Source: Patellaria atrata CBS 101060 (lineage: Eukaryota). From it: a stretch of 64,000 bases of DNA. Below, one piece after another: positions 21,439 to 55,235 of this stretch. Each line of letters starts with the position of its first letter. The stretch's first letter is position 1. Both the position numbers and the translations under genes were made by a program. The stretch lies in NCBI GenBank assembly GCA_010093705.1, contig MU006107.1, positions 170,031 through 234,030 on the forward strand, read 5' to 3'. Under the pieces are notes generated by a model, which made no database searches, was not told where the DNA came from, and saw nothing but the letters and a program-made list of their open reading frames with translations.

Positions 21439-22818
21439 TGGAAGCGATCTTTCTCTAGTTGCGTATAACAGTACGGATCATGGATTGGGAATATTGAAGG
21501 TACGAAGGAGCTATTTAAGGTACAAATACGATAAAATATTTCGATAGCAAAACACAGACGGAGAAGAAAGAAATGGGCCGTCAGGATACGAAGATGGTGG
21601 CGGGCGTCGTGAGCTTGATATACGAAGTATCTGACCACCTACATTTGCTCCATCCCAGAGGACAAGCACCCAATCTAAGATCAGGTTTGGATTGATTGAC
21701 CAATACACATCCTTAGACGGTTGAATAGCCGACAAGATGAAGGAAGATCACCGAGTAGTTATGGTGGCAGGCAGTGATGTGTGATTCCAGCCGTTCAACA
21801 TGGCGAACCAGCCATCGCAAAAACGCAGACCAGCCACTCAGATCTGAGCGATTTTCTGCAGAAACAAGTCAATAGCAGCAACTATAGAATTACTATCCAT
21901 GCATTTGGTTTTGTACATAAGCTTCAGCTGCTTGGAGACCGATGCAGGTTTTGCTTGAGGGACGTCGTGATGCGGTGATATTTGTTGCTCTGGTTGGGTG
22001 ATGTTCTGAAGAGCCCCTCGGTAGTCAGGCCTTGCCACTTGTCTCGAACGGGAAATCGCGGAACTGATTCAAGTAATAACTGCACGCGGGGCAGGCTAGG
22101 TCTAAAAATAGCATACAGCACCTCAAAGATAACATACGGTGTATAGGTGGAGTATTGAATTTCAGACACCATCCATAGACATACAGATACCTCCGATTCA
22201 TTGCTTCGAAGGGAAAAGATTAGTTTCTGTGCTCTCCTAAAGGATAGAAAGAAGAAGCTCTCTTCTGAGTTTCATGCGAAATACATATATGAATTGTATG
22301 TATTCTACCTAAATAGTTGTGGGTGACGGGGCAACGCTCAGTGTAGTGAACTGATTCGGTCATCCCCTAGCCAATGCGCTTCGTATTTCTGCACTGATCT
22401 TCACACAAAGGAAATGATCATTTGCAAGGAAGCTTAGTTTTATTGAATTGGCGTCTAACGGTCCCCTTGGTCCTTCCATTGGAAGCAGTCTAATATCAAA
22501 CTTGATATGTATCTGTGACGGATACCTTCGTTATTAAGTATTCCTTAATGCTGGACTCAATGCGAGTCGCCACTTTAAAAGCTCCACGAGGAGCTAATTA
22601 TCAATTTTTCGGTTCATTGTAGGAAAGACGACCAGAATAGGTCCATACAGTGCACCAACAGTAACCAATCCCAAAATGTTGGTACAGCTAACCTATACAC
22701 CAGGTGATGCAAACATAATGATATGGCGGATTCCGTCCCTCCCCTCTCAGAGCTGGCCGATATTAGTATCATGAAAAGATGTAAGTAAATAAAAACGGCA
22801 TAAATCGTAAGTGCTTCG

Positions 22819-24568
22819 TCAATCGACCTCCCAATTGCTCCCCTGGCTCCTTGATCTTGTAGTTTTCGAGTATGAGTTCACACTTTTCAGAGGAATCCCG
22901 TAATCATCTTCCTCCCAGTCGCTGCTCTCGTCCTCACTCGATTCCCACGAGCAGGGAATCCGGTTACCTCTACCCGTAATGCTATGGGATAAAGCTTTAG
23001 TGCTGTTTGAGATACTTGCAGCTATTCGAAGCATGATCGCCACTAAGTGCGCTGGGGGTCCTAAAAGAACAGAGCATGTTTTTTGGACCAAGGCCGCAGT
23101 GAACTGTTTACGTCGTACAGTCGAAGGAGGGGAGAAAAGAACAGAGGGATGAGGCATGGGAGAAAGGCCCCGGTCAGATGCAGATGGATGAAGACGGCGT
23201 AGCCTAATAGCGTCGGGCGGCGTTGGAACGTCTGACCACGGCAGTTCCAAGTTATCATCGGAGTCGCTCACTAGCGGTGGGGTAGAAGGTCGTGACACGG
23301 TCCCCTCATCCTCTGAGAGTAATCTTGGAGAGTTCAACGCTCGTGAGACAAGGGATGTCGGTGTAATTGTTAGATCCGAGATATCCCGCTTATGCTTCGT
23401 GTTTAGAGGTGTAAAATGTGTCGACTGGTTATCAAAATCGTTCCCAGATGCTTCGGTAGGTTCGAGGTATGGAGGAGATGGTGGTGGTGAGGATAGTGCA
23501 TCATTCAGAGAATAAAAGGAATCTAAGCTAGAGGCTTCGCTAGATGTCTCTCCAATGGTCTCTGTAGATGAATTGGGTTTGAACTTCGCTATGGTCGGTG
23601 GCAAATTCTCTTTAGCAGAATGGGAGGGAACGCTGATCGACCTCAAGCCTAGAGACACTCTAGGATTTGTGGGAAGTTTCCACTCGGACGGGAAGTTATG
23701 TTCTACTTTGATAACTGGATGGACGGGTGTACCATCCTCATCCGGGCTGGGCGTCTTTACACTTGCAATATCATCATGAACGGATATAGAGAAGTCTTTA
23801 CTCCCAGAAGATGTATCACTGCGGTTCTCTACATCCTCCGGTAACCAAACCTTATCCAGTTTCCACTTTTTGGCTCTTTCCGAGGTACCCCTTGGTCGTC
23901 TTTTAACCGGAGTTTCCGGCGTCTGTGGTAGTTCCACTTCGAATTCTCTTTTGAAAGGGCACGGTGTTTTCTCATACTGTAGGACTTTATCTAGGACAGT
24001 TTTCAATTCCGCGGACTTCTGTTTGTCTTCGGGATTTTGATTCGGAAGCTCGATCCGATAGTAGGAGTTCATCCGGACTCTCAGAATGAAAACAGAGTCA
24101 CCGTCGACACACCAGCATTGGGATTTAGGGAGAATGGGATGCAGGAGCTTGCCAGAGTTCAAAAAGGAAACCGAGCCAGGTACGCGGTATATACGTAGCG
24201 GACCTATCGAACAGTTAGTATGACTTGTAGACTTAGGGCTGCCTTGAGGACTTTCCAGCCGCCATAGTTCTCTCCACTGTAGAACCCCAGGGGAGAGTTC
24301 CAGTTGTATTTTGATCGGATCCCGCAGCCTTACTACCATCCAAAGCACTCCCAGAAGCGCTGGTCGACGCAGTGAAGGATACGACTTTTCCAAATGAGTT
24401 CGAAAATAGAGTTTCGACACCTGCCCCGCCTGGATCTTGGTTGGAACCTATTAGCTTCGTCGGTTCTGCCAACTTCGCAGGGACTGTGAATGAGCGCCGC
24501 ACTCCATATTGTCTTGCTGGAGTAGTTGACCCATTATCTGGCGCCAGAGGTGGTGTCGATGCGCTCAT
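22819..24568 (-). CDS. INP1: Inheritance of peroxisomes protein 1 (Inp1 domain)
   Basis: GTLPWGSTVERTMAAG|PLRIYRVPGSVSFLNSGKLLHPILPKSQCWCVDG..F.LR...YYRIELP..VLQYEKTPCPFKR. Joining the two ORFs requires an intron at 24204-24255 with a GA donor. Confidence 0.85.
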
Positions 24569-25114
24569 TATTCGCTCTTCATCAGGGGCATGCCTGACTG
24601 GTAAACAGTTGTACAAGAGGTAGTTCTCTCGTAGCCTAAGCCCGTGATCAAATGTAAAGTTTGCTATGGCGCCTTAACCAAAAGTTATTTGCAAAGTGGG
24701 TTTGGAAGTATGGAGGCTGGTTCGAGAGAAGTCGGGAGGCTTGGGGAAGCTCAAACCCCAGATCTTCGCCAAGGACGCACGGATAATCTACATTGCTGGA
24801 TGGCACACGTCTGCTTTCTTCTACATATGTACAAGCTATAATGGACTGAAATTCTTGTTCGAGGTGTGTCTCTTTGATATTAAGTCACTGTAAACTTTTG
24901 TGTAATTACGGGGCATACATTGAAATCTTAATACCCAAGCTAAAGTCTTCGATGTATACTGTACCTTCGAAAAAGCGAATACGTCACCCCACATGCCAGC
25001 TTTCGAGGCTTGTCAGGTACGATATTTAGGACGAACTTCGAACAACAACCTGTCCCGCTTGAGACCAAAGAGGTAAACATATTTTACCTGCTGCCAACCT
25101 GATGACCTGACAAG

Positions 25115-41683: not shown

Positions 41684-44288
41684 ATGTCGGTTGCAATGCT
41701 ACAAGCTCCTTCGAGGGCGTCGACCTCCTCCTCGTCTTCCTTTGTCCCAATGACACGACAGAACACGATGTCTTCTCACGATGGAAGTAGGTCTGCAAGG
41801 CAATCAAAGCGGTATTCCGTCACGGCACTGTACATGTCTATGTCGGCGAGGGACAAGGAATTAGAAATTGATGATGAACTAGCAAAAGGTATAACTCAGT
41901 CTCAAGATTTCTGTTTCTCGCAGAGGCTGACGGTTCGATAGCTCAGAAGACGTTGCGAGAAATAAAGTCGAAAATCTCATCGCAGTCGAAGAAGAACTTC
42001 GTGCTGGAAAAGGACGTCAGATATCTCGATTCGAGAATCGCTCTTCTGATTCAGAATCGCATGGCTCTTGAAGAAGTGAGTTCTCTTGTAGTCAATATGT
42101 TAGCTGTACGCTGACTTTTAAAAGCAAAATGAGGTAGCCAGCCATCTTGATGACGCCACCGACCTTCAGGAAGGCTTCTTCCCCAATGATGACAAGACTC
42201 AAAAGTATGGCAACTTGATGTTCCTACTCCAGACCGAGCCCCGACATATCGCACACCTTTGCCGCCTTGTGACGATGGCGGAGATCGACTCACTATTACA
42301 GACAGTCATGTTCACAATCTATGGTAATCAATACGAAAGTAGAGAAGAACATCTGCTTTTGACCATGTTTCAGGTTTGTGCATTCTTGTGTGGAATCTGT
42401 CTAGAGTTTTACTGATCATGTCACGTAGTCTGTTCTCACGTACCAATTTGATAATACAGCCGATTATTCTTCTCTGTTACGCGCAAATACCCCTGTTTCA
42501 CGAATGATGACAACGTACACTCGCCGAGGGCCTGGTCAGAGCTATCTCAAATCTGTGCTGGCTGAACGAATTAACTCTCTCATCGATATGAAAGATCTGG
42601 ACCTGGAGATTAATCCGCTCAAGGTCTACGAAACTGTGCTCAGGGAAGAGGAAGAGAAATCAGGATCGCTACCGGACCATTTACCAAAGGGTGTTACAGC
42701 TGAGCAAGCAGCCGAGAACGAACAAGTTAAACAAATCATCGCACCTAGGCTAGAAATGCTTATGGACATTGCGGACGGTTTCTTGGATACCATTATCAAT
42801 AACCTCGAGGAGACCCCCTATGGGATCCGGTGGATTTGTAAACAGATTCGAAGTCTTTCGAGACGCAAATATCCGGATGCGTCGGACACTACTGTCTGCA
42901 CCCTCATTGGAGGGTTCTTTTTTCTGAGATTTATCAATCCAGCCATAGTGACTCCACGGTCTTACATGCTCATCGATAGTGTACCAGCCGAGTACCCTAA
43001 GCGAACGTTAACCTATGTGAGTTACTCTACATATCACCAAAGCTTGCTTTAAACTAACGTCTTCCAGGTGGCGAAAATGCTACAAAACTTGGCTAATAAA
43101 CCTTCATATGCCAAAGAGCCCTACATGCAGGGTCTTCAACCTTTCATTGAGAACAACAAGGAGAGAATCAACCGGTTTATGCTTGATCTTTGTGAAGTTC
43201 AGGACTTCTATGAGAGCCTCGAGATGGACAACTACGTAGCACTCTCGAAGCGAGACCTTGAGCTATCCATCACTCTCAATGAAGTCTATGCAACCCACCA
43301 ACTGTTGGAAAAGCACAGCGCCGAGCTGACGAAAGATGAGAGTTCCCACCTGAGTATTCTACTCAAAGATCTCGGCCCTGCCCCAGCACAGCTTCCACGA
43401 AAGGAAAACAGAGCGATCAACTTGCCTCTTTACAGCAAATGGGAGGTCCCACTCGATGATCTAACAGCAGCCCTGGATATCGACCAACAGGAGGTGTATT
43501 TTATGGAAGCTAAATCGACATTTGTCATGATCATGAGATCGCTGCCACCAGATGCAAAAGTTGCCCGACGACCACTCCGCCTCGACAGAATTGCTGAACA
43601 AGCAGCAACGACGAGGAACGATGTTATGGTGAAGAAGGGCATCAGGTGTATTGAGCTTCTGAGTCAGCTGCAAGAAATTGGGGTTATCGACAAAGCTGAT
43701 AACTTCGCTCTTCTCAGAGATGAAGTGGAACAAGAGCTTGTTCACTTAGGCTCTATGAAAGATAAAGTTATAGAGGAAACTAACAAGCTTCTAGAGGTTT
43801 TCCGCACGATCCGTGACCACAACAATTACCTGGTGAGTCAGTTAGAGACTTACAAGTCATATCTGCATAACGTGAGAGGCCAATCCGAGGGTAAGTCAAG
43901 AGGCAAGCCGGAGAAGAAACAAGTCCTCGGTCCGTACAAGTTCACACACGCTCAACTTGAAAAGGAGGGCGTTATCCAGAAGAGTAACGTACCTGAAAAC
44001 CGACGTGCAAATATTTTCTTCAATTTCACCAGTCCATTACCGGGCACATTCGTGATTTCGTTACACTATAAGGGTTAGTTCCAGAGATGACAATTCCCTT
44101 TTAGTCCATAGCTCATTGATTATATAGGCAGAAACCGTGGTCTCCTCGAACTTGACCTGAAGCTCGACGATTTGCTTGAAATGCAGAAGGACAATCAAGA
44201 AGATTTGGATCTCGAATACGTACAATTCAACGTCTCTAAAGTTCTCGCACTACTCAACAAGCGATTTGCAAGGAAGAAAGGCTGGTAA
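41684..44288 (+). CDS. gapA: Ras GTPase-activating protein (GapA/Sar1 type)
   Basis: [63 protein letters not shown] and the RasGAP_C region. Five introns. Ends RKKGW*. Confidence 0.93.
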
Positions 44289-54000: not shown

Positions 54001-55235
54001 ATGACATTTCTATCTCCAATTTATTCTCTTCTCGTATTCTGTAACAAGAGGGCCAGGGACTTCAATAACTTCGTCGAAGATATGCCTTCCTCCAGATCGC
54101 GAAAAGTGCTCAAGGGTATTAGTTGGACAGTCTTCTGCATAGTCTGCTCTCCCCTAGTCTGCTACTACACTATTGAAGTGCTGCTGGAAGATGTTATTGA
54201 TAAAAAGAAGCGTGAAGCAGCAAAGGTTAGAAGGAGAGAAAAGAAAGAACACCGAGAACGCGTTCCAGTTCCGTTACCAGGAGTACGGCCGCGACGTCTA
54301 AGTCTCCCTCTCTGTGAACCACCAGTTGAAGCTCAGCCGAACGAAAAGCGGCCTATACATGTGCTACCCATCAGGAGGAAAAATGTACGACAACCTGCAA
54401 TTGTTCAGACCACTCTTGACCAGCTACAATCCCCGCTCTTCAATACTCTACCCGCAGAAATACGAGTCCTCATATACCAATACGCTATTGGGAACCAAAC
54501 GCTACATATAACCCATTTGAATAAACGGCTGGGTCACATCGTATGCATGAACACAAGCTCTCAAAAACAATTTGGTGTGAGACGGCACTTTTGCTGGGGT
54601 TACGAGACAGAATCCAAGGAATTCATAAATGGCGATCCAGAGTTGTTTTCTAACACCATGGGCGAAGGATTTACCACTCCATCAAGTACAGGCAGTCTTC
54701 TTAGCCTTCTAAAATCCTGTCGACGAGTGTACGAACTTCCTGTCACACATAAAAATAGTAAAAGCTAATTCAAAAAAGATATTCAGAAGCAATCAGCATA
54801 CTCTACACACGGAACATCTTCGCCGTAAAGCATATCCGTACAGTAATCGACTTGAACCATACCATCCTAACTTCAAGACTCCACCAAATTCGAACACTAG
54901 ATCTGCGTTGGACCACACAAGCTCCGTGGCATGCGGAGAACATCGATAATCGCACGACAGTATATGACAAGAGGACTTGGGAGCACGTCTGGTCAATCAT
55001 AGCTAGAATGGATGGTCTTCGTAACTTGAAAGTCGAGATTGGAGGACCTGGTCTCTTGGAACCAGCACACGTTCTGGCTGTATTGAGACCCCTCTATCAC
55101 GTTAAACAGACGAATGTTTTTATGGTGACTATTGAGGATTGGCGAAAGAAGGTTCAGGGTGACCTACCTCCTGGTCCGTTCTTGCTGAGAAGCCGTTATT
55201 CGCGCACCAAAGAGGAAGTTGCATGGAACCCTTGA
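54001..55235 (+). CDS. F-box-like hypothetical protein
   Basis: QLQSPLFNTLPAEIRVLIYQYAIG and LLSLLKSCRRV|YSEAISILYTRNIF. One intron at ~54729-54779. Start is 54001 or 54082. Confidence 0.75.

Follow-up and report, generated by a model that had tools for sequence, protein, structure and literature searches.

A GA donor at an ancestral GT-AG intron of the peroxisome inheritance gene INP1 in Patellaria atrata, possibly spliced as a GA-AG intron

The window analyzed here is a stretch of 64,000 nucleotides (64 kb) from the genome of Patellaria atrata CBS 101060. On its minus strand, from 24568 to 22819, lies a two-exon gene. Exon 1 (24256..24568) starts with the ATG at 24568-24566 and comprises 104 codons, translated as MSAS...GSTVERTMAA, plus the first base of a split glycine codon; it ends ...ATG GCG GCT G at 24256. 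Exon 2 (22819..24203) begins GT CCG CTA CGT ATA TAC from 24203, thus supplying the last two bases of the glycine codon, and continues for 460 codons to the stop at 22821-22819. The intron between them (24204..24255) is 52 nt long, lies in phase 1 within the glycine codon, and has a GA donor and an AG acceptor. When 24255..24204 is removed, the junction reads ...GSTVERTMAAG-PLRIYRVPGSV and the full-length Inp1 has 565 residues. An initial sequence-only reading of this DNA had described the stretch, GAAAGT...TACTAAC...TAG, as splitting the INP1 frame, and all of its sequence details match ours. It also stated that the unspliced frame runs into a stop. Without splicing, the frame of exon 1 indeed reads ...ERTMAAGKSSRQP, continuing after its 104 codons as GKSSRQP, and reaches a TAA (24233..24235, read as 24235-24233) after 10 codons, giving a 111-residue product.

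The gene is INP1 (inheritance of peroxisomes 1). For the Pfam family Inp1 (PF12634; cut-off 23 bits), exon 1 scores 23.5 bits, its residues 51-103 aligning with profile positions 2-56, and exon 2 scores 108.4 bits, its residues 1-77 aligning with positions 59-137 (of 137). The two halves of the domain adjoin at the junction with two profile positions unmatched, and the split glycine fills one of these. The proposal that intron removal joins ERTMAAG to PLRIYRV fits this succession of profile segments. A database search with exon 2 returned 675 homologues (E <= 0.001), and nearly all of those that carry names are called ‘inheritance of peroxisomes protein 1’. The best match is the public model for Patellaria atrata CBS 101060 itself (P0003, 527 aa). 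It is identical to exon 2 at 432 of 432 aligned residues, with a single 28-residue gap as the sole difference, and from the N-terminus through ...TLPWG it agrees with exon 1. The middle homology domain of Inp1 is reported to be PH-like and to comprise seven strands plus one helix (Krikken 2020, PMC7659721; PMC7659723).

Apart from one base, the intron carries the usual signals. The donor, CTG/GAAAGT, has GA at +1/+2 where U2-type introns normally have GT or GC, and agrees with the rest of the consensus (G at -1, and A, G and T at +3, +5 and +6, respectively). The donor hexamer GAAAGT spans 24250..24255 and the A at +2 is position 24254, a T on the plus strand. The branch-point motif TACTAAC (24214..24220) has its branch A at 24215, at a distance of 11 nt from the intron's 3' end, and is followed by the TAG acceptor (24204..24206), which is common to the public gene model; the pair corresponds to the CTRAY and YAG pattern. 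Cuts shifted by one base (GG..TA or AA..GG) would produce the same mRNA, and it is only with the GA..AG cut that the acceptor is AG. U12-type donors carry a long conserved minor-class motif. The donor GAAAGTCC shows no resemblance to this motif, and the branch motif is the U2-type TACTAAC. The sequence-only reading considered the intron typical in length, and 52 nt does fall within the 44-94 nt of the ten GT introns found by a strict scan of the window, as well as the 49-99 nt of the orthologous introns described below. Branch distances in the same ten introns are 5-28 nt, mostly 10-13.

The intron has clear counterparts in relatives. A scan of metagenome contigs provided 80 loci, of which 77 were examined; L029, L032 and L053, with a C-terminal match only, were left out. 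An intron is found at the identical codon position and phase, phase 1 in the glycine that follows the E-R-T-x-A-x motif, in 62 of the 77 loci. The location of the GA stretch is thus not a coincidence. These 62 loci represent 38 distinct sequences, all of which have GT..AG introns of 49-99 nt (most 50-60), and in most of the 38 introns a CTRAY motif lies 8-19 nt before the 3' end. The comparison with orthologues that the sequence-only reading had proposed therefore yields both a conserved position and a consistent GT donor. Since the relatives are only 35-47% identical to the window protein (best local segments up to 67%), the INP1 intron is old. Given that the donor is GT in 38 of 38 distinct relatives, the GA is a derived T-to-A change at +2.

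Some relatives are without this intron. It is absent from the INP1 junction in 13 of the 77 loci, and two further loci gave no motif match: L068, which is cut by a contig end, and L037, which by reading is intronless with a variant motif. Motif, glycine and core follow one another without an intron in L005, L012, L030, L037, L045, L054-L056, L058, L060, L065, L066, L079 and L080. The intronless relatives point to loss of the intron in some lineages or to cDNA-like records.

The residues upstream of the junction are conserved. E-R-T-x-A-x directly precedes the glycine in 59 of the 76 homologues with 10 or more residues upstream of a G..RIYRV-like core. In an alignment of 47 orthologues, with the numbering of orthologue P0028, T97, A99, G101, R104 and Y106 never vary, and W90 and E95 are almost as constant. 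An AlphaFold2 model of P0028 derived from the same alignment has R-T-x-A as a strand (96-99) and RIYRV as a second (104-108), with further strands up to residue 153 and then a helix at 159-175. On the basis of this model, the junction glycine is predicted to sit between two adjacent strands. Averaged in blocks of ten residues, pLDDT is 80-94 from residue 101 to residue 170; it is below 50 for residues 65-95. The mean for the whole model is 54, owing to disorder in the C-terminal two thirds. The isoform made by splicing from the cryptic GT considered next would lose the first of the two strands flanking the glycine.

Alternative junctions were compared across exon 1, in which 278 canonical, in-frame, stop-free donor/acceptor pairs were counted. 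Among the pairs listed (all donors from 24368 to the stop), none keeps ERTMAAG joined to PLRIY. The earlier statement that no GT or GC donor in the right phase keeps the motif thus stands for these pairs, with one addition: an in-phase GT does exist at 24285, and its use deletes the motif. This cryptic donor, GGG/GTTCTA (24280..24285), lies 30 nt upstream of the GA, shares its phase and its TAG acceptor, and defines an 82-nt intron whose removal leaves a protein without STVERTMAAG. With a profile made from 56 full-length orthologues, we obtained 586.8 bits for the GA-AG isoform, 555.9 for the cryptic-donor isoform, 542.5 for the public model and 498.9 for exon 2 alone; these differences are inflated by the choice of the 56 for their motif from 74 homologues of at least 540 aa. 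Six other canonical combinations score 500.8-574.3 bits against the same profile, all below the GA-AG isoform. The junctions 24277/24232, 24333/24204, 24336/24204, 24277/24148 and 24262/24148 were rejected with scores below that isoform, as was 24251/24224, which at 28 nt is also too short for an intron. By reading, pairing the normal acceptor with the GT located 4 nt into the intron (24251) would shift the frame. The only junction predicted to give the full Inp1 domain is consequently GA-AG.

A similar ranking was obtained for the donors themselves. We scored them with a matrix of the 38 orthologous donors, in which exon positions are constrained by coding and the penalty at +2 is limited by pseudocounts. 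On this scale, the GA site reaches 9.6 bits when +2 is disregarded, compared with an orthologous median of 8.6, and 5.3 bits when +2 is included. The weakest of the 38 orthologous donors scores 4.8 bits, less than the GA site, and the cryptic GTTCTA scores -4.8, below all 38.

The public model P0003 reads ...TLPWG-PLRIY... and so places the first intron base at 24285. It also contains a second intron (23649..23732) of 84 nt, in frame and stop-free, which accounts for the 28-residue gap in the public protein. Every one of the 29 orthologues of alignment A1 fills the columns corresponding to 23732..23649 with 23-43 residues, among which a P-x-R-P-[RK] stretch, loosely conserved, immediately precedes RS[IV]T. 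No branch-point motif was seen within 23649..23732 on reading of the sequence. It therefore seems probable that the second intron is an artefact and that 28 residues are missing from the public protein. The doubtful second intron in turn casts doubt on whether the public model rests on transcripts, and suggests an ab initio prediction instead of a transcript-built one. Overall, the public INP1 model appears to be wrong twice, omitting 10 conserved residues at the junction and 28 residues further on. A separate observation concerns the same region. A 218-nt contig of depth 2.4, from a run (X3) labelled with a different organism and study, is identical to window positions 23640-23857 and crosses the doubtful second intron unspliced; it may derive from DNA, RNA or sample carry-over.

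The GA base itself was examined in sequencing data. The sequence-only reading had singled out position 24254 for inspection in reads, and the GA is seen there in the contigs of two DNA runs. These contigs (20,353 nt in X1 and 19,015 nt in X2) show no other letters and no gaps over 22700-24800, at word depths of 331.7 and 462.7. The two runs come from one sample, which is probably the source of the assembly itself, so they do not amount to independent confirmation, and contigs drop rare variants. The runs rule out a slip of assembly and are still compatible with a mutation specific to the culture.

GA-AG introns were described in the sequence-only reading as a very rare splice class. This agrees with surveys, parts of which put them at roughly 0.006-0.04% of introns (PMC10668435, PMC11590231, PMC5714493). 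The INP1 intron would be a further member of this known class, which has already been documented in fungi. Passages of the respective reports describe GA-AG junctions in RNA-seq data from Fusarium graminearum (PMC3577648) and 35 GA-AG introns, or 0.038%, in Ganoderma lingzhi (PMC11590231); like INP1, these are fungal cases in which the class occurs at very low frequency. A close parallel is intron 12 of SYMRK in the plant Trema orientalis, where a single-base change produced GA and the gene is reported as fully functional (part of PMC10668435). As in INP1, a conserved intron was converted to GA by one base in one lineage, in a gene that otherwise looks intact. Another is the yeast ACT1-CUP1 reporter with a U-to-A change at +2; it resembles INP1 in its fungal spliceosome, in the change itself and in its TACTAAC branch site. 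According to the part of the report concerned, its lariat intermediates accumulate and the second step becomes limiting (PMC10578475). By analogy with this build-up, the fungal spliceosome may yield little mRNA from the INP1 intron. The INP1 intron differs from SYMRK, which had an ancestral GC and whose function has been shown, in belonging to a fungus with 50-nt introns and in descending from a GT. It differs from the reporter, which is engineered, tested in Saccharomyces and gives little mRNA, in being a natural allele of a Dothideomycete. The Fusarium and Ganoderma introns have transcript support and, in the passages of those reports, no analysis of orthologous introns, whereas the orthology of the INP1 intron is clear.

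Animal examples provide further points of comparison. Working natural GA-AG introns are known in human FGFR1-3 and ITPR1, as given in a passage of PMC4176328; the FGFR GA donors go back to Twigg 1998 and Brackenridge 2003, as cited in passages of PMC4176328 and PMC7072748. Like the INP1 donor, they are U2-type GA donors inside an otherwise good 5' splice-site consensus. The FGFR GA site is an alternative site, reported in those passages to need a canonical GT 6 nt upstream as well as intronic elements (PMC4176328, PMC7072748). In INP1, by contrast, the nearest upstream GTs are at 24277 and 24285 (22 and 30 nt away), a GT lies 4 nt downstream, and the site would be constitutive. No ‘parasitic’ GT of the FGFR type, about 6 nt upstream, is present at the INP1 donor, the nearest being 22 nt away. 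In human ITPR1, the GA-AG junction was misannotated as a nearby GT-AG, as recounted in part of PMC4176328, and we suspect the same kind of error in the public INP1 model. In human minigenes, six of 30 variants at +2T gave 4-81% full-length transcript, one of the six being T>A, according to part of one study (PMC12805630). GA donors occur at high frequency both in Eurytemora affinis and in Oikopleura dioica (PMC5714493; a passage of PMC7072748). As in INP1, these donors have A at +3. However, both species are animals with thousands of GA introns, in which the exon must end in AG and U1 may be modified, whereas the INP1 exon ends in TG.

On balance, we propose that the INP1 intron is a genuine GA-AG intron at an ancestral site, probably spliced inefficiently, and hold this reading with about even confidence. 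The INP1 coding sequence is interrupted by one ancient phase-1 spliceosomal intron, the donor of which has changed from GT to GA through the T-to-A substitution at +2. With all other signals intact, the U2-type spliceosome would still recognize the ancestral site. A GA-AG cut would then give ...ERTMAAG-PLRIYRV and the full-length protein of 565 residues. If the yeast +2 U-to-A reporter is a guide, the first catalytic step would proceed and exon ligation would be slow, and productive mRNA would thus probably be reduced, not absent. Both the use of the GA-AG junction and its inefficiency are points that we infer.

Other explanations have to be weighed against this proposal. It seems rather unlikely that the change is a recent or strain-specific loss-of-function splice mutation, with the intron retained or splicing stalled after the first step, so that the product is the 111-residue peptide or nothing, and with too little time for the remainder of the gene to decay. 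Retention would meet the TAA after 10 codons, part of the yeast study describes the reporter as blocked mainly at the second step (PMC10578475), and most human +2T>A minigene variants gave no full-length transcript in the part of the study concerned (PMC12805630). The analysis covered one sample of the species, which is compatible with a GA allele that is not fixed. The state of the gene argues in the other direction. Exon 2 is intact for 460 codons and keeps all invariant columns of alignment A1, the exon 1 motif is undamaged, no other damage is apparent in INP1, and orthologues of Inp1 occur in every sampled group of relatives (675 matches). An error of sequencing or assembly hiding a true GT donor, as the sequence-only reading had allowed for, is very improbable. 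GA is one base away from GT, the donor in all 38 distinct relatives, but the two runs, for all that they share one sample and probably the assembly's source, contain no other letter and no gap at high depth.

We consider it unlikely that the GA donor is dead and that splicing has moved to the cryptic GT at 24285, which would produce an in-frame Inp1 without STVERTMAAG. Pairing 24285 with 24204 gives a canonical junction that keeps the phase and introduces no stop, the resulting 82 nt lie within the 49-99 nt of relatives, and the public P0003 has exactly this junction. The cryptic donor has no G at +5, a base that five of the 38 orthologous donors also lack. Yet it matches the consensus at its G and T only and, as noted above, scores far below the minimum of real donors. 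Its use would remove two invariant residues, one nearly invariant residue and a predicted beta-strand, at a cost of 30.9 bits against the orthologue profile. The public model that uses it also removes the in-frame 84 nt that 29 of 29 alignment A1 orthologues fill. In addition, the 30 nt in question still encode an undamaged conserved motif, which is unexpected if they have long been intronic. Mixtures of GA-AG use, cryptic-donor use and loss of function are possible.

An extension of the GA-AG proposal is that GA is the fixed wild-type state and that slow ligation, as a throttle built into the gene, restrains how much of the Inp1 tether is made. We regard this as quite improbable. The idea that GA limits tether dose is speculation, consistent by analogy with the yeast reporter data. 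If it were true, INP1 would offer a natural, orthology-anchored conversion of GT to GA that is tolerated and perhaps made use of.

The case is of interest for its clear ancestry and for an evident fault in the public gene model. With an intron that starts with GA, the cell either splices a very rare type of intron or makes a damaged Inp1, a peroxisome-tethering protein. If the GA-AG junction is used, INP1 would be a clean natural example of a rare class in a filamentous fungus, for which the ancestral GT and the exact base change are known. It would likewise be comparable with the engineered yeast +2 reporter as regards the tolerance of second-step proofreading for GA. If the gene is instead broken, the strain would be a natural INP1 hypomorph or null. 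The public INP1 model also illustrates how predictors restricted to GT and GC donors swap a non-canonical junction for a nearby weak GT.

The whole 64-kb window was scanned for similar cases. A strict scan, under a branch-point and ORF-joining filter, found 10 distinct GT donors, two GC, three GA and no GG. A loose ORF-joining scan gave about 500-670 candidates for each dinucleotide tried and did not discriminate between them. Two of the GA candidates were rejected in favor of canonical alternatives. The candidate at 42335-42428 (plus strand) has an in-frame GT-AG alternative of 55 nt (42374-42428) with the same acceptor, and the one at 54725-54786 (plus strand) has an in-frame GT-AG alternative of 50 nt (54729-54778). 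INP1 is the only convincing GA donor in the window. No Pfam family was found for the short exon near 42.2 kb, and Rfam gave no matches in the 64 kb.

Finally, homologues with odd sequence ahead of the core were considered as possible non-canonical donors elsewhere. The nine that were checked proved to be in-frame read-throughs of the intron and are uninformative about +2. In these proteins (P0004, P0018, P0025, P0043, P0059, P0072, P0077, P0104 and P0121), the intron is read straight through, so that TERT.A.G is followed by 17-20 odd residues and then by G.LRIYRV. This is likely to reflect an intron whose length is divisible by three and which contains no stop. NCBI species names are attached to five of the nine, and the other four are from Logan assemblies. 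The insert of P0104 matches the intron of locus L035.
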